A stretch of 24,032 bases of DNA. Source: an uncultured archaeon (lineage in GTDB: Archaea > Asgardarchaeota > Jordiarchaeia > Jordiarchaeales > Jordiarchaeaceae). The notes below the pieces were generated by a model. That model did no database searches. It was not told the DNA's origin and worked only from the letters and a program-made list of their open reading frames with translations. Below, one piece after another: positions 1 to 20,161 of this stretch (the first letter of the stretch is position 1; every line of letters begins with the position of its first letter). Location of the stretch: positions 1 to 24,032 of the forward strand of contig CAZECW010000184.1 in the NCBI GenBank assembly GCA_964510585.1, read 5' to 3'. The position numbers and the translations under genes are program-made.

Positions 1-138
1 CCCCATGAGGGTGCCAACATAGACGCCGTTCCCTTGAGGGAAGGGCGTGTTAACTGGGTGATGGCACACCCATTGCTTCGAAGGCTCCCGATGAGCCAGA
101 AGCAAGAATCTCCCGACTTTAGTCGCGGAGAGTGTCAA
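1..138 (+). mobile_element. Right part of a non-autonomous IS200/IS605-family element (copy 1, truncated by the window edge)
   Basis: Near-identical to 18221-18359 and to the reverse complement of 11935-12073. It ends in GAAT + subterminal hairpin (cgactttagtcg) + gagtgTCAA; this copy has a 1-nt loss in the hairpin stem. Confidence 0.9.
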
Positions 139-202
139 ATACAATGATTGTATTTATCTACTAACAATTTCTTCTTCGTCTCTTTTCTAAGTGAATTTAG
201 TC

Positions 203-5642: not shown

Positions 5643-7220
5643 ATGGCGAAGAAAAAAAGGAAGACCGAGAAGAAGGAGAAAGGGAAGACCCGCTCATTGG
5701 TAACACTGGGATCTGCTTTCTTCACCTATAATGCTGACGTTCAAGCGTTTCCTGTTTATTATACTTCTATGGGAAGAGACTTGGGTACTTCTCGGGCTGC
5801 TCTGGGATTCATAGATACCACTAGGGGAGCTCTGCAGGCCTTTCTTACGCCCTTCTGGGGATTTCTAGCAGACAGATATTCTCGTAAGAAGGTTCTAACT
5901 ATAGGCTGCTTGGTCTGGGGGATTGCTACCATTCTCCTCTCCCTTGCCGGAAATTACACTACTCTTGCCCTTCTAAGAATAGTTACTGCCCTGGGACTGG
6001 CAACCATGGTTCCAACCGGCTTCTCACTTATTGCGGACATGTATCCCTTGGAAAGCAGAGGAAAATACTATGCGGTTTATGGAGCCATAGGAATAGTGGG
6101 TTTAATGTTAATTATACCAATACTGGGATTTCTGGACGCTCCAAGTCTCACGGGAGGATTAGAGTCAGACCTCTATAGACTAGCAGTATACCAGGCGGTT
6201 TATCCCGACACAATGCTTATTCTGAGGAATATTTTACAGCTGGACGCGCTTGCAAAAAGCACACTTTACAATGGGGTGTGGAGAAACGGCTTCATAGTTA
6301 TGGGAGGCATAAGCATTGGAGTCGCTGGGCTAGTAACACTATTTGTGAAGGAACCCCCGAGGGGAGCTGCAGAAAAAGAACTTAAAGGCGTTGTCACCGA
6401 AGAAACAACAGAAAAGTACAGGATAAAACGCAGCGCATTTAAGGAAATTTTGAGCACCCGCACCATGCTGGTAATCATTGGACAGGGAATAATGGGATAC
6501 TTTCCCTACGTCGTACTCCAATTCTGGTTCATCCACTGGTTTGAAACCGCTAGGCAAATTCCCCCATTTCAAGCCACCATAATTTTCGCAATACTGGTCA
6601 TGGGCTCGGCTCTCGGTAACCTAGTGGGTGGACTCCTCGGTGACCGCATGGAGAGGAGAAGCCCAGCAAAAGGCAGAATTATGGTTGCCCAAATATCAAC
6701 CTCCTCAGGAATACCGTTGGTGCTTCTAATCCTATTTGTCAGAATGGACTTACTTTTATACATTGGTATCGCGTTTTTCACCGCAATTATGATGAGCTGG
6801 AGCGGAGTGGGCGCGGTTGAGCCCATAGTCTCCGCAGTTAATAAGCCAGAAACACGTAGCACCGCCTGGGCTCTAGAGCAAATGTTTGAACAGGGCTTCG
6901 CAGCCTTCGGAGTAGTCATAACGGGTTGGATTGCTGACAACATAAACCTGGGAGTATCAGGAATAGCCATGCAGTGGATAACGCCCTATCTTAGTTATTG
7001 GCTCTATTTCGCCGATATAGGGTTCCTTCTCTATATTATGTGGCTATCCGGCGAGTCACTAACACTCGCCATGGCCCTAACAGTCTCTATTCCCTGGACC
7101 TTTTGCGTACTCATATGGTCACTAGCATACCGAACCTACTACAAAGATAAAAGTAAAATCCAACAGTTTCTGGAACAGAGAAGGAAAGAAATCACAAAAA
7201 GGGATTATCAGAATAGATAA
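5643..7220 (+). CDS. MFS transporter (MFS_1, Spinster-like)
   Basis: 525 aa with multiple hydrophobic helices, MFS motif A GFLADRYSRK, and its repeat GLLGDRMERR in the C-terminal half. Confidence 0.9.
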   Translation: MAKKKRKTEKKEKGKTRSLVTLGSAFFTYNADVQAFPVYYTSMGRDLGTSRAALGFIDTTRGALQAFLTPFWGFLADRYSRKKVLTIGCLVWGIATILLSLAGNYTTLALLRIVTALGLATMVPTGFSLIADMYPLESRGKYYAVYGAIGIVGLMLIIPILGFLDAPSLTGGLESDLYRLAVYQAVYPDTMLILRNILQLDALAKSTLYNGVWRNGFIVMGGISIGVAGLVTLFVKEPPRGAAEKELKGVVTEETTEKYRIKRSAFKEILSTRTMLVIIGQGIMGYFPYVVLQFWFIHWFETARQIPPFQATIIFAILVMGSALGNLVGGLLGDRMERRSPAKGRIMVAQISTSSGIPLVLLILFVRMDLLLYIGIAFFTAIMMSWSGVGAVEPIVSAVNKPETRSTAWALEQMFEQGFAAFGVVITGWIADNINLGVSGIAMQWITPYLSYWLYFADIGFLLYIMWLSGESLTLAMALTVSIPWTFCVLIWSLAYRTYYKDKSKIQQFLEQRRKEITKRDYQNR

Positions 7221-7548
7221 TCCATACCTTCTCTTTTTAAACCATATATTAGGGGTTGATAGTTTTTAGAATTAGGTAAAAATCAAAATTTATAGGACTC
7301 ACACAGTTGGCCGGGTATTTGTGTGTGGGACTTGGTGGATTTAACTTAGTTCTCTATTTTAATCATTTTTGGCATTTTCTTAGAAATAGGAACAAAAAAT
7401 TCTTGTTTTTACCAATTCAGGGTAAAAAAATGGGAATTTAACATTCCGCAGGTGCAATCCGCCCACAAATCAACCTTCAACTGTGTAACTCCTAATTTAT
7501 TAGGTATCTCAACATTTTGAAGAATACCTTAATGCCCATAGAAAATAA

Positions 7549-7867: not shown

Positions 7868-9592
7868 GTGAATAAGTTGAAGTTTTCCGTTCTCGCCAAG
7901 TGTTTTGAAGATTTAGAAGGTACTTCCAGCCGGCTTGAAATGACTGACATTCTCGCGAATCTTTTCAAGGACTGCACAACCGAGGAAATCGATAAGGTTG
8001 TCTATATGCTTCAGGGCACTGTGGCTCCCCCATTTAGGGGCATAGAGATTGGTATGGGGGAAAAATTCGTTCAGCAAGCGGTTTCCAACGCCTCCGGCGT
8101 TCCGAAGGAGGAGGTGGTTAACCAGTATAAAACTCTTGGTGACTTGGGCACCGTTGCTTCAAACATTCTTCCCAAAAAGGAGGGGGTTCTAACTGTTTCC
8201 CAAGTTTATGACGCCTTTATGAAAATCGCCACGGCCTCGGGCAAAGGCACACAAGAGGTGAGAATAAACGCCCTAACAGATCTCTTAAAGAATTCTTCAC
8301 CTGAGGAAGCAAAGTATCTGGTTAGGATACCTTTGGGAAAACTCAGGCTGGGTGTGGGAGACGCAACCATAATAGATGCCCTATCGGTTAGGACAGTGGG
8401 AGACAAGTCCATGAGGGAGGAGATTGAGAGGGCGTACAATCTCTGCTGCGACATGGGCCTAGTGGCAAAAACACTCTACACCGACAGGAATGCAATAACC
8501 AATTTTCAAATTAGGGTGGGCAACCCCATAAAGCCAGCACTGGCAGAGAGACTCTCAAGCGCGGAGGAAATCATTGAAAAAATTGGCGAGTGCTACGTTG
8601 AGGCAAAGTACGACGGTTTCAGAATCCAACTCCACAAAGAAGGAGACAAAATCGAATTATTCTCGAGAAGAATTGAGAGAATGACCCACATGTTCCCAGA
8701 AATAGTCAAAGCAGCCAAAGAACAAATAAAGGGAGACGCCATAATTGAGGGAGAAACCATAAGCTACGACGAATCCACAGGCGAATTCCTACCATTCCAA
8801 TTCACCATCCGCAGAAAAAGAAAACACGGAGTAGAAGAAATGGCGGAACAGTACCCCGCAATATACTTCGCCTTCGACATACTCTACAACGGCAAAGACC
8901 TAACCCAAAAACCCTACCTCGAAAGAAGAAGCATCCTAGAACAAACAATCACCGAAGGAGAAATCATAAAAATCTCGGAAAAAATCAGAACAGGAGACCC
9001 CCAAGAGTTGATGCGATTCTTCAACGAAAACATTGGAAGAGGACTGGAAGGCATAGTAGCAAAAGACCTAAAAGCGCCATACATTGCAGGAGCAAGAAAA
9101 TTCGCCTGGATAAAACTGAAGCGATCCTACAAGGGAGAACTAGCAGACACAGTAGACGTCACCATAGTAGGATACCTGGCAGGCAGAGGAGCCAGAGCAA
9201 AAATGGTGGGAGCCCTACTAGGAGCAGTCTACGATGAAGAAACAGAAACATTCAAAACAGTAGCCAAAATCGGCAGCGGAATGACAGAAGAACAAATGAT
9301 AAACCTAAAGAAAATGCTCGACCAAATAAAAGTAGAAAAAAAGCCCAAAAACGTCGACTCCCTCATAACACCAGACGTCTGGACCCAGCCCCAATACGTA
9401 ATCACAGTATCCGCAGACGAAATAACCCTATCACCATCACACACCTGCGGAAGAACCAAAGACCTAGGATACGCACTCAGATTCCCCAGAATGGTAAGCT
9501 GGATAAGACAAGACAAAAAACCAGAAGACTCCACCACAGTAAAAGAAATAATACAAATGTACAACATGCAAAAACACGCAAAAACAGAATAA
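7868..9592 (+). CDS. lig: ATP-dependent DNA ligase (archaeal/eukaryotic LigI type)
   Basis: 574 aa with an N-terminal DNA-binding domain, motif I EAKYDGFRIQLH, then FAFDILY, EGIVAK, WIKLKRSY, and motif VI ALRFPRM. Confidence 0.97.
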   Translation: MNKLKFSVLAKCFEDLEGTSSRLEMTDILANLFKDCTTEEIDKVVYMLQGTVAPPFRGIEIGMGEKFVQQAVSNASGVPKEEVVNQYKTLGDLGTVASNILPKKEGVLTVSQVYDAFMKIATASGKGTQEVRINALTDLLKNSSPEEAKYLVRIPLGKLRLGVGDATIIDALSVRTVGDKSMREEIERAYNLCCDMGLVAKTLYTDRNAITNFQIRVGNPIKPALAERLSSAEEIIEKIGECYVEAKYDGFRIQLHKEGDKIELFSRRIERMTHMFPEIVKAAKEQIKGDAIIEGETISYDESTGEFLPFQFTIRRKRKHGVEEMAEQYPAIYFAFDILYNGKDLTQKPYLERRSILEQTITEGEIIKISEKIRTGDPQELMRFFNENIGRGLEGIVAKDLKAPYIAGARKFAWIKLKRSYKGELADTVDVTIVGYLAGRGARAKMVGALLGAVYDEETETFKTVAKIGSGMTEEQMINLKKMLDQIKVEKKPKNVDSLITPDVWTQPQYVITVSADEITLSPSHTCGRTKDLGYALRFPRMVSWIRQDKKPEDSTTVKEIIQMYNMQKHAKTE

Positions 9593-11652: not shown

Positions 11653-11934
11653 TTTTTCTCTCCCTTACCTTTTTTGTTGAAGTTGGGAAGGGCTCGCAGA
11701 TTAAAACAAGTAGTTTATTCAACTTTTTAAACCGAGCATATTTCATGTGTTCTTTTAGCCCTTCTCCAAGGCTTTATTATGCGTTTATTAAATATATAAA
11801 AGTTTAGTTTTCATTGTGTTGGGGATTTGGATTTATTTTGTTTCTTTCCCTTTTTTGGTTGAGGCTTCTAATTAGAGGGGTGGAGTTTTAACCGCTTCTT
11901 TTTTGAGTGGTGGGTGAACTATTCCTATGTGTTT

Positions 11935-12110
11935 TTGACACTCTCCGCGACTAAAGTCGCGGGGATTCTTGCTTCTGGCTCATCGGGAGCCTTAGGAAGC
12001 AATGGGTGTGCCATCACCCAGTTAACACGCCCTTCCCTCAAGGAAACGGCGTCTATGTTGGCACCCTCATGGGGGCTGCGTCTTGTTTAGCCTCCTTGAG
12101 CCCAAGCCAA
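11935..12110 (-). ncRNA. Putative TnpB omegaRNA (reRNA)-like scaffold within the element
   Basis: Nested stems: acgcc/ggcgt enclosing ttccct/agggaa-type, gggtg/caccc, ttgcttc/gaagcaa enclosing ggctc/gagcc, and the terminal RE hairpin. It lies at an IS605-type right end. The 5' boundary is estimated from the TATA position. Confidence 0.55.
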
Positions 12111-12130
12111 ACCCTTCAGCTACCAACAAC

Positions 12131-12140
12131 TATTTATATA
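12131..12140 (-). promoter_or_regulatory. Putative TATA box inside the element (TATATAAATA), pointing to the right end
   Basis: The motif lies about 195 nt upstream of the element right end. The equivalent site in copy 3 is TACATAAATA (18153-18162). Confidence 0.5.
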
Positions 12141-12302
12141 CCATACTTTCAAATAAACTTTCTGGAGATTCATCCCCACGACTAAAGTCGGGGGCTTTCT
12201 CGCCAAGGTTTTGTAAAGCCATCGGATAATTTTTAAAATGTGAAAAATGGGTTAAAGGTTGAATTCTTGGTTTCTTACCTAGAAAAGGGGAGAGGGTGTG
12301 TT

Positions 12303-15884: not shown

Positions 15885-15984
15885 GAACTATATTAAACCC
15901 TCTTCTACAAGTTTTGTATAATTAGCTGTTGCAGGAACTATATTAAACCCTCTTCTACAAGTTTTGTATAATTAGCTGTTGCAG
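15885..15984. repeat. Perfect tandem duplication, 2 x 50 bp
   Basis: gaactatattaaaccctcttctacaagttttgtataattagctgttgcag occurs at 15885-15934 and 15935-15984 with no spacer. Confidence 0.97.
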
Positions 15985-16219: not shown

Positions 16220-17974
16220 ATGAGTAAGAAGAGTAAGGCAAAGCCTAGCAAGGCAAAGAAAGCAGCAAAAATTGTGAAGCCCAAGGTAGAGAAGGAGTTA
16301 CCGGACTACATTAAAAATAAGATTTGGCTGAAGAAATACCCTCCAGACTTACCCAAAGAGGTTAAAATACCAACTGACAAGTCGATACCCGAACTGGCTG
16401 AGGAGGCCGCGGACAAGTGGCCAAATTCTGTAAACATAATATTTTATGGCAGAGAATTCACTCGAAAAGAGTTCAAGGATTACATTGACAGACTCACCAC
16501 GGCATTCCAAAAAAATCTGGGAATAAGGAAGGGGGACAAGATAGCCATATACCTGCCAAACTGTCCCCAATTCATCATCGCATACATGGCAGGACTGGCA
16601 GCTGGAGCCACAATGACCTGTATCAGTCCACTATTTGTGCCCCGAGAATTAGCTTACCAGTTAAAGGACAGCGGAGCAGAAACCCTAGTAACCATGGACA
16701 TGTTCTACAACAATGTGGGACAAATAAGAAACGAGGTTAAACTAAAAAACATCATCATCACCAACATATTTGGACAAACACCCAGCGTGCCCGAAAGCGT
16801 GGAACAAGGAATATACCACATGACCAACCTAATTAAAGACACCACTCCCGACATTACAAGGGTAAAAATTAACCCCAAAAAGGACATTGCAGTAATTCAA
16901 TACACTGGAGGCACAACGGGCATGCCTAAAGGCGCACTCCTCACCCACTACAACCTCATAGCCAACGCCCACCAAATCATACCCATAACAGAAGCACTGA
17001 AAAAGAGGTTCGGTGAGGAGAGGGTGAGATCCATAAGCGTACTGCCCTGGTATCACATATATGGACAAACCTGCGAAATAGTTGCGGGAAACCTGATAGA
17101 TTCAACAGCGGTGCTTTTCGCCCAGTTTGACCCGGGAGCCATTCTTGACGCCATTAACAAGTATAAACCCTGGCTCTTCTTAGGAGTTTCAGCTTTGCTC
17201 ATAGCACTTATGAACCACCCCAAAGCCAAAGAAACAGATTTCAGCTGCCTCAAATATGTTAATATGGGAGCCGCTCCAACCCCAGACGAAGTTGCAAGGC
17301 AATGGAAAAAATTATCTGGACACCCGCTGAGCGAAGGCTACGGGCTAACCGAAACCAGCCCTGTAACCCACACTCGACCAGCCCAACTTTTCGGCGAGAA
17401 ACTGGGAAGCATCGGCCCACCGATTCCCAACACGCTGGCAGGCATAGTAGACCCAGATACCAATGAGTTTCTACCCATAGGTGAACTGGGAGAACTGGTG
17501 ATTAGCGGTCCCCAAGTTATGCTTGGTTACTATAACAGGCCTAAGGATACCGAGGCAGTCTTCTTCGAGGCAGGGGGATACAAGTGGCTTAAAACCGGAG
17601 ACCTAGCCCGAATGGACGAAGACGGATACTTCTACATTGTTGACCGCACCAAAGACATAATAAAATATAAGGGTCACAGCGTATATCCCAGGGAAATTGA
17701 GGAGGTTATATTTGAGCACCCCGCAGTGCTGGAATGCGCAGTTATCGGCGTACCGGATCCTGAGGCAGGAGAAAACATAAAAGCATACATATCACTTAAA
17801 CCGGATTACAAAGGCAAGATAACGGAGGAGGAGATGAAGAACTGGATTAAAGAACGAGTCGCCGCCTACAAGTACCCCAGATACGTGGAGTTCATAGACG
17901 TTATCCCCAAGACCATCGTAGGCAAAGTTCTGAGACGAGCACTAAGAGAGAAAGAGGGCGTAAAGTCGGGATAA
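16220..17974 (+). CDS. Long-chain fatty acid-CoA ligase (FadD-like)
   Basis: AMP-binding motif QYTGGTTGMPKG, EGYGLTE, WLKTGDL, IVDRTKDII, and C-terminal PKTIVGKVLRR. Confidence 0.93.
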   Translation: MSKKSKAKPSKAKKAAKIVKPKVEKELPDYIKNKIWLKKYPPDLPKEVKIPTDKSIPELAEEAADKWPNSVNIIFYGREFTRKEFKDYIDRLTTAFQKNLGIRKGDKIAIYLPNCPQFIIAYMAGLAAGATMTCISPLFVPRELAYQLKDSGAETLVTMDMFYNNVGQIRNEVKLKNIIITNIFGQTPSVPESVEQGIYHMTNLIKDTTPDITRVKINPKKDIAVIQYTGGTTGMPKGALLTHYNLIANAHQIIPITEALKKRFGEERVRSISVLPWYHIYGQTCEIVAGNLIDSTAVLFAQFDPGAILDAINKYKPWLFLGVSALLIALMNHPKAKETDFSCLKYVNMGAAPTPDEVARQWKKLSGHPLSEGYGLTETSPVTHTRPAQLFGEKLGSIGPPIPNTLAGIVDPDTNEFLPIGELGELVISGPQVMLGYYNRPKDTEAVFFEAGGYKWLKTGDLARMDEDGYFYIVDRTKDIIKYKGHSVYPREIEEVIFEHPAVLECAVIGVPDPEAGENIKAYISLKPDYKGKITEEEMKNWIKERVAAYKYPRYVEFIDVIPKTIVGKVLRRALREKEGVKSG

Positions 17975-18004: not shown

Positions 18005-18079
18005 AAGTGATTCGATTGAAACTAAGTTCTTATGAAAAGAGGATAGAAAATCCCTCAAGAGGATTTGGAGACATTTTAC

Positions 18080-18359
18080 AAAACCTTGGCGAGAAAGCCC
18101 CCGACTTCAAGTTGTGGGGATGAATCGCCAAAAAGCTTATTTGAAAGTAGGGTACATAAATAGTTGTTGGTAGCTGAAGGATTTGGCTTGGGCTCAAGGA
18201 GGCTAAACAAGACGCAGCCCCCATGAAGGGTGCCAACATAGACGCCGTTCCCTTGAGGGAAGGGCGTGTTAACTGGGTGATGGCACACCCATTGCTTCCT
18301 AAGGCTCCCGATGAGCCAGAAGCAAGAATCCCCGCGACTTTAGTCGCGGAGAGTGTCAA
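18080..18359 (+). mobile_element. Non-autonomous IS200/IS605-family element (copy 3, complete, 280 bp)
   Basis: TTTAC at 18075-18079, AAAG at 18094-18097 before the LE hairpin, GAAT at 18326-18329 before the RE hairpin, and terminal TCAA at 18356-18359. It is near-identical to copy 2. Confidence 0.92.
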
Positions 18360-18460
18360 TGATACCACAACCTGAATTTTTATGTGGGCTGTGTGAAAAA
18401 GGTCAAAATCCTCACATGTTCAATTTATACCTAAGAACAATGCAGTGAGTGGAATTATAC

Positions 18461-20161
18461 ATGTTTAGATTTAAAAAATCAAAACTTCCAGACTACGTTA
18501 AAAAGAAGATATGGTTGAAGAGCTACCCTCCAGATTTCCCTAAGAAGATTAAGATTCCCAAGAAGCCTTTGCCCGAGGTGTTTAGGGAAGCGGCGGAAAA
18601 GTCTGGCGACGTGGTTAGTCTCATTTTTTATGGTAAGGAGTATACACGCAAACAGATTATGGATTGGTCTGATAGGTTGGCTACTGCCCTCCACAATATG
18701 GGTGTAAGAAAGGGTGACGTCGTAGCGATTTATCTACCCAATAGTGTGCAGTTTTTGGTGGCATACTATGGCATTCTAGCAGCGGGAGCTACGGTTACTG
18801 CCATAAGCCCACTTTTTGTGCCGCGTGAGGTTGCCTTCCAGCTAAAGGACAGCGGAGCGGAAACCATAATTACAATGGACCTCTTCTACGAGAACGTGAA
18901 ACAGATTAAAGATGAAACTCCTCTAAAAAATATTATTGTGTGTAACCTTATGGGGGAGAAGCTTCGAGTTGAAAGAGAAGACTTGGATAAAATAATAAAC
19001 TACCATGAACTAATTGAGAGAACCCCTCCCAAACCTCCCAAAATAAAGATAAACCCCACGGAGGACGTGGCGGTGCTGCAGTATACTGGTGGAACAACCG
19101 GCCTACCAAAGGGTGCCATGCTTACCCACTACAATATGTTAGCCAACGCCCTACAAGTTGTCCCCATTACGGAAACATTAAACAAAAGGTTGGGTATTGA
19201 TAGAACTATTGCGATCTCAGTTTTACCTTGGTACCACAGCTATGGCCAAACAGTGGAAATCGTGGCGGGCGCCCTGCTTAATAGTCTTGGCATATGTTTC
19301 TCCCAGTTTGACCCCGCCCCCATTCTTGAGGCAATCCAGAGGTATAAGCCTAACACTTTCATAGCGGTTCCTGCAATTTTGATTTTGTTGCTGAATCATC
19401 CCAAGTCTCGTGAAGTTGACTTTTCCTGTTTAAAGTACTTTAACATGGGTGCTGCCCCCACTCCTGTGGAGCTTGCCAGACAGTGGAAAGAGTTGTCAGG
19501 TAATCCTTTAAGCGAAGGTTATGGGTTGACCGAAGCCAGCCCAGTGACCCATAGTAGATGCGCCCAGCTTTTTGGCGAGATTCTGGGCTCAGTTGGTCCC
19601 CCCATTTTGAACACTCTGGCAGGAATAGTGGATCCAGACACCAACGAGTTTCTTCCTATCGGGCAGCTGGGTGAGCTGGTGGTCAGCGGTCCTCAAGTAA
19701 TGAAGGGCTACTGGAAACGTCCTGAGGAGACAAAGAAGGTGTTCTTTAAGGCTGGTGGCGTAACTTGGTTAAAGACCGGCGACCTTGCTCGTATGGATGA
19801 GAATGGCCATTTCTACATTTTGGATCGTACTAAAGACATAATAAAGTATAAGGGTCACAGCGTCTACCCGCGGGAACTTGAAGAAGTATTGTTTACCCAT
19901 GAAGCAATCATGGATGTTGCAGTGATTGGGGTGCCCGACCCCGATGTGGGTGAACAAATTAAGGCCTTTGTGGTCTTGAAGCCCGAATATAAGGGTAAAG
20001 TTACGGAAGATGACATACTATACTGGTGTAAAGAACACATGGCAGCCTTCAAATATCCCAGATACTTGCAGATCGTGGATTATCTTCCAAAGAGCATGGT
20101 GGGCAAAACTTTAAGAAGAGTGCTCAGAGAACAAGAAGCCCAAAGAATGGCAGAAACTTAA
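18461..20161 (+). CDS. Long-chain fatty acid-CoA ligase (FadD-like), tandem paralogue
   Basis: Same motifs (QYTGGTTGLPKG, EGYGLTE, WLKTGDL) and extensive identity to 16220-17974. The start is the ATG at 18461 or the GTG at 18449. Confidence 0.93.
   Translation: MFRFKKSKLPDYVKKKIWLKSYPPDFPKKIKIPKKPLPEVFREAAEKSGDVVSLIFYGKEYTRKQIMDWSDRLATALHNMGVRKGDVVAIYLPNSVQFLVAYYGILAAGATVTAISPLFVPREVAFQLKDSGAETIITMDLFYENVKQIKDETPLKNIIVCNLMGEKLRVEREDLDKIINYHELIERTPPKPPKIKINPTEDVAVLQYTGGTTGLPKGAMLTHYNMLANALQVVPITETLNKRLGIDRTIAISVLPWYHSYGQTVEIVAGALLNSLGICFSQFDPAPILEAIQRYKPNTFIAVPAILILLLNHPKSREVDFSCLKYFNMGAAPTPVELARQWKELSGNPLSEGYGLTEASPVTHSRCAQLFGEILGSVGPPILNTLAGIVDPDTNEFLPIGQLGELVVSGPQVMKGYWKRPEETKKVFFKAGGVTWLKTGDLARMDENGHFYILDRTKDIIKYKGHSVYPRELEEVLFTHEAIMDVAVIGVPDPDVGEQIKAFVVLKPEYKGKVTEDDILYWCKEHMAAFKYPRYLQIVDYLPKSMVGKTLRRVLREQEAQRMAET

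Follow-up and report, generated by a model that had tools for sequence, protein, structure and literature searches.

A family of protein-free transposons occurs in the genome of an Asgard archaeon (G000, 3.78 Mb), and it is probable, at about 0.65 in our own estimate from the comparative analysis, that these mini elements guide the nuclease TnpB in trans to their own empty sites. Genome-wide, 79 left ends and 68 right ends of the family were counted, with 27 copies assembled in full (271-280 nt, mean identity 96%), and contig breaks often fall inside repeat copies. Three copies lie in the window, that is, the whole 24,032-nt stretch analysed (contig C184), and their parts are collected in Table 1. 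The minis are non-autonomous IS605-family transposons of the PATE type: they hold no protein-coding gene and are too short for a transposase, with only C-terminal codon remnants of tnpB left; both ends carry subterminal hairpins and terminal inverted repeats are absent; insertion takes place 3' of a fixed TTAC without target duplication, and the ends are common to a Y1 TnpA-encoding element of the same genome. PATEs with an omegaRNA, as well as the principle of self-retention, have already been published (PMC10055086, PMC10691335).

The minis have ends of the IS608 type and insert precisely 3' of TTAC with neither duplication nor loss, so that a different host sequence comes to lie beside each copy. 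According to the proposed model, from a retained putative promoter an RNA of ~195 nt would be made that runs past TCAA into this flank, and TnpB produced elsewhere would load the mini RNA and cut TTAC plus flank, a target found only on chromosomes without that copy; repair from the occupied chromosome would restore or spread the copy. Each guide would serve one site, its own, and the ~80 guides would be a by-product of 80 insertions. The "capture" of a guide follows from insertion itself: wherever an IS200/IS605 element inserts, the adjoining sequence becomes a potential guide. Host-derived flanks, a clean TTAC junction, the scaffold, and TnpA and TnpB with matching ends together make self-retention the model to be expected.

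Table 1. Copies of the mini element in the window and their parts (positions of the window)
Feature	Position	Strand	Remarks
Complete 280-nt protein-free IS605-family element (PATE)	18080..18359	+	G001 and G004 lack it at the orthologous site; same-species assemblies L014 and L017 carry it
Target tetranucleotide TTAC (left cleavage site; presumed TnpB TAM)	18076..18079	+	77/79 left ends; kept in the empty site
Left end	18080..18131	+	DNA guide AAAG 18094-18097; subterminal hairpin 18099-18119; outer stem 18086-18092 with 18125-18131
Putative BRE/TATA-like promoter motif	18130..18143	+	Placed like the motif before tnpA in the full element; predicted RNA start near 18166
5' structured RNA domain, not recognisably tnpB-derived	18166..18237	+	Predicted fold; stems 99-100% paired across copies
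OmegaRNA-like core, tnpB 3'-end homologue	18242..18359	+	H1 18242-18267; H2 18274-18291; H3 18292-18325
Core, 3' part	18326..18359	+	DNA guide GAAT 18326-18329; right-end hairpin 18332-18349; terminal TCAA 18356-18359
Predicted pseudoknot in core	18281-18286 with 18353-18358	+	H2 loop with terminal GTGTCA
Right-end flank (predicted guide)	18360..18379	+	Intergenic host DNA, with an acyl-CoA ligase gene downstream; directly follows TTTTAC in G001 and G004
Second complete copy, 278 nt	11935..12212	-	TTAC at 12216-12213; same junctions in assembly L133
Flank (predicted guide) of second copy	11915..11934	-	Right-end junction
Third copy, 3' half	1..138	+	Truncated by contig start
Flank (predicted guide) of third copy	139..158	+	Right-end junction

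The three flanks of Table 1 had been quoted in an earlier, sequence-only reading of this DNA, correctly in coordinates and letters, together with the claims that the identity of the copies stops at TCAA and that a TTTAC motif precedes them. Comparison of the copies bears out the first claim, TCAA standing at 68/68 right ends. TTTAC is indeed found before both complete window copies (18075-18079; 12217-12213 on the minus strand), but it does not hold as a strict motif across the genome, where the base before TTAC is T in 44, C in 15, A in 10 and G in 8 cases (n=77). Strict TTTAC is ruled out: the invariant motif is TTAC, and T at the fifth base (position -5; 44/77 against 30.7 expected from a GC-matched background, p=0.002) is only a soft preference. 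The sequence-only reading had held that a lack of the 5' TT(T)AC in other copies would speak against it; for TTAC such a lack is not seen, since 77 of the 79 left ends are preceded by it.

All 68 right-end flanks differ from each other in their first 10 nt, and their first base is A in 40, T in 14, C in 13 and G in 1 (expected 18.5, 21, 19.4 and 9.1; p=6e-8). In IS608, which has TTAC and TCAA with the DNA guides AAAG and GAAT, the base preferred at +1 is the one that starts its own left end (PMC5934647). In the mini, AAAG and GAAT sit at the feet of hairpins, as in IS608, and the first base of the element is A, so the motif and the +1 bias fit a choice of target by TnpA. The family is therefore like Helicobacter pylori IS608 in TTAC/TCAA, AAAG/GAAT, subterminal hairpins and a +1 preference equal to its own first base, but unlike the autonomous IS608, which favours C at +1 (PMC5934647), the Asgard family prefers A there, with the soft T at -5. 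By analogy with other IS605 systems, the TAM of TnpB would be the same motif as the target of TnpA. A run of five T within 16 nt is present in only 4/68 flanks.

The last 120 nt of the mini are homologous to the 3' end of tnpB. H1, H2, H3, the right-end hairpin and the predicted pseudoknot recur in the present family (family A), in a second family of G000 (family B), in minis of the congener G004 and in tnpB-bearing elements, with pairs swapped between families (H1 outer stem ACGCC/GGCGT, GTGCC/GGCAC or ATCCC/GGGAT; H2 T-A to C-G). Within family A 98.5-100% of cells are paired and three copies show the compensatory H2 change of T-A to C-G; the predicted pseudoknot is paired in 99.8% of cells and nearly invariant. 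A pseudoknot to the terminal bases is described for the ISDra2 omegaRNA (PMC10097598). The view that the mini carries an omegaRNA-like scaffold ending at TCAA is supported by the homology to tnpB 3' ends and the compensatory changes. A search of the element against Rfam 15 gave no match at E<=1, which counts little against the scaffold since Rfam covers few omegaRNA clades. A long-range minimum-energy fold was dropped for the local H3 hairpin common to all families. The RNA is predicted to start near 18166, the first base of the folded 5' domain; a diverged relative occurs in G004 (L112), its arms altered and its pairing kept as judged by eye. The left end with AAAG is common to minis and tnpA-bearing elements.

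Several further minis were observed. Family B (C21:~50-400, C32, C58:~28220-28560, C107:~6900-7233 and C40 of G000) is longer, protein-free, has the TTAC/TCAA ends and the H1-H2-pseudoknot core of family A, and possesses its own 5' hairpin domain. In G004, independently derived minis of ~210 nt (L104, L107, L118, L120, L122, L124, L126) have kept no more than the left end and the final 110 nt of the RNA; with the same query none of this type was found in the complete genome G005. Finally, there are terminal-only elements of ~50 nt without the RNA, in which the left and right hairpins are fused; they are diverged and lie in G000 (C3, C19, C40, C55, C92, C157, C173) and G003 (L106, L116, L131).

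The main rival to self-targeting is that the elements spread only because TnpA recognises their two DNA ends, the RNA part being an unused leftover of tnpB and the flanks just flanks. The copies are young, as their 96% identity indicates, and in young copies an intact scaffold needs no selection. Although variability is lower in the RNA region (0.012-0.015) than in the left end (0.026) and the spacer (0.073), within the family stems do not differ significantly from loops (23/110 against 26/80, p=0.09), so that inheritance, and not selection, may account for the scaffold. Elements of 50 nt without the RNA persist as well, which counts against self-targeting, and so do empty alleles. Against a passive relic stands the observation that families A and B of G000 and a further mini family in G004, independent of one another, have all kept H1-H2-H3-pseudoknot with swapped pairs; moreover, the RNA-bearing family has ~80 similar copies as opposed to ~10 diverged RNA-less forms, and an additional folded domain is present at the 5' side in family A. 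A passive origin is, on this balance, a serious though rather unlikely explanation, and self-targeting is preferred.

Self-targeting also needs helpers, and both Y1 tnpA and tnpB genes were found in the genome. On contigs C7, C169 and C162 the left end of the family is followed by TnpA and then TnpB, and the elements on C8, C45, C54 and C152 finish with its right end; we strongly infer that the minis are moved in trans by the Y1 TnpA of a co-resident tnpA+tnpB element, for which the polymorphism of insertions within the species speaks indirectly. In G000 contig ends interrupt the cognate tnpB, and the copy on C7 is frameshifted. A full-length TnpB of 393 aa (P0001) adjoins tnpA in L165, a metagenome which also holds minis; it matches the G000 pieces at 94-100% and scores 160.8 bits against NF040570 (cut-off 100). 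At the RuvC-II position P0001 carries glycine, with a glutamate further on, an arrangement described for TnpBs of the rearranged RIIr-5 clade, which are predicted to be active (PMC10691335). As read from the sequence, P0001 and a second TnpB on C81 (an open 424-aa frame, 45% identical to P0001) keep the D of RuvC-I, the D of RuvC-III and the alternative E of the rearranged RIIr type. The C81 gene lies in an IS605 element (C81:5075-6790, minus strand) in which a degenerate tnpA and the intact-looking 424-aa tnpB share one open frame of 571 codons. A parent tnpB with exactly the H1 of the family was not found among 30 metagenome matches.

The minis outnumber the full elements by ~8:1 (79 left ends against about 9), and one could suppose that their RNAs mainly bind TnpB as decoys, dilute the guides of the full-length element and damp its homing while cutting little. 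This is hardly credible as the main role, because guiding, too, would be expected of an RNA in which the pseudoknot is kept and which continues into the flank, and direct signs of a decoy role were not seen.

At the site orthologous to the 18080-18359 insertion, between two acyl-CoA ligase genes, G001 has TTTTAC followed by the 18360 flank, the first 14 nt of which are identical, and G004 has the same apart from one substitution at +1; the junction shows 0 duplication and 0 deletion in both, while same-species assemblies are occupied. The flank is thus vertically inherited host DNA, in keeping with the earlier claim that the guides are host-derived. For the 11935-12212 copy the empty site was not recovered, the intergenic region of the congeners being too diverged, and no orthologue of the 139-700 flank was found in five congeners.

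In 4/30 metagenome element loci the right flank is uninterrupted in G000, each time after TTAC and in one case after TTTAC, and C154 is a fifth such TTAC-flank case. The empty alleles of G000 (C154, C130, C105, C9, C125) correspond to insertions in G000 or in other assemblies of the species, and those on C154 and C130 are exact with both sides of the junction matched. A clean junction of motif and flank, which the sequence-only reading had predicted for TTTAC, was accordingly seen for TTAC in G001 and G004, and TTAC directly adjoins the flank at five sites of G000. Insertions of the family are thus clean, and they vary within the species. Empty and occupied alleles even occur together in one bin (C154/C12, C130/C98), so any drive would be incomplete, unless the bin mixes strains.

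A stronger version of self-targeting would regard the ~80 RNA-only cassettes, sharing one or few TnpB genes, as genome-wide allele-specific drives, which would convert incoming or sister empty alleles, select escape alleles and possibly drive rearrangements by recombination between copies, the 5' domain being adapted to work in trans. As a whole this extension is improbable.

Some junctions are irregular. The copy at C12:8680-8955 joins a left and a right flank which assembly L152 places 2 kb from each other; there, the C154 segment (1-2321) is bracketed by two directly oriented copies. The C12 junction is either chimeric assembly or a true deletion that arose when copies recombined. Unrelated flanks are likewise joined at C98 and L136. 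On C75 (minus strand, about 15960 from the end) a site related to the left flank of C66 and the right flank of C62 has TTAC, two extra A and the C62 flank. The element may have been lost there imprecisely at an AA microhomology, in a way that would escape the guide, or the site is simply a paralogue.

It was also proposed at the outset that the copies form a dispersed guide library, whose guides would target other host loci, viruses or plasmids and be kept for that effect. Certainly 68 distinct guides could share one nuclease, and when the TAM is strong, mismatches are tolerated by a related TnpB from an archaeon (PMC11043419). Nevertheless, TTAC plus seed matches of 6-12 nt for the 68 guides numbered 843, 209, 55, 18, 2, 1 and 1 genome-wide, and those of matched pseudo-guide controls 776, 213, 60, 17, 5, 2 and 2, which is the level of chance, with neither enrichment nor depletion, although the depletion test is weak above 9 nt. 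The single full-register match above 9 nt, an apparent off-target of the C12 guide on C154, is in fact an empty allele, the site being occupied in assembly L152. The window guides reach at most a seed of 8-9 nt and 14-15/20 matches, below the 13-14 bp which SisTnpB7 needs (PMC11043419), and the 18360 flank is, as described, host DNA by vertical inheritance. Among IMG/VR viral contigs the three window guides had no exact TTAC+16-nt match and the element itself had no copy; plasmids gave no match either. The window holds no second TTAC + 8-nt seed even with one mismatch, as the sequence-only reading had noted by eye, and with 0.13-0.20 expected by chance this absence says little. A wider guide library is unsupported, and it appears very improbable that the guides are kept for such effects.

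PATEs often encode omegaRNAs on which TnpB from other elements would act in trans (Meers et al., PMC10055086), and in the Geobacillus stearothermophilus model TnpB cuts the empty donor site and so retains the element (PMC10055086). The Asgard minis are like the IS200/IS605 PATEs of that bacterium in being protein-free, in keeping both ends, in having these ends in common with tnpA/tnpB elements and in carrying an omegaRNA-like part that TnpB would use in trans, and unlike them in their Asgard host, in forming one homogeneous family of ~80 copies instead of several families and in the extra 5' RNA domain. With the PATEs of Haloquadratum walsbyi (PMC3119063) they share the lack of inverted terminal repeats, near-terminal palindromes, the absence of target duplication, homogeneous high-copy families, strain-specific insertions and terminal-only derivatives of ~50 nt. 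Those PATEs were defined before guide RNA was known, and their end sequences differ from the Asgard family. According to the summary in PMC10691335, the standalone omegaRNAs of OMEGA systems are likewise RNA-only mobilised loci with the effector in the same genome and a flank-derived guide; trans activity was shown for them, whereas for the Asgard minis we infer it, and their biological role is given there as unknown.

If the minis guide TnpB, their ~80 guides would offer a natural test set for the role of standalone omegaRNAs. Alleles with and without the element are known from the same population, and a candidate thermophilic TnpB whose motif, TTAC, is short would be at hand. Site-specific homing would then influence how frequent alleles are at dozens of loci of this Asgard archaeon.

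A few observations concern the remaining window. The element at 18080-18359 is flanked by two tandem paralogous acyl-CoA ligase genes (16220-17974 and 18449-20161), after which comes an enoyl-CoA hydratase-like gene, and an exact 50-nt tandem duplication lies in the intergenic DNA before the first of the two (15885-15984). An ATP-dependent DNA ligase-like protein (7868-9592) is 97-98% identical to those of Jordarchaeia/Freyarchaeota MAGs, the nearest named relatives by this protein, which places the host among the Asgard archaea; its nearest matches outside Freyarchaeia in this analysis are in DPANN archaea (Micrarchaeota, Pacearchaeota) at 55-60%, and there is a hint that this gene may have been transferred horizontally.
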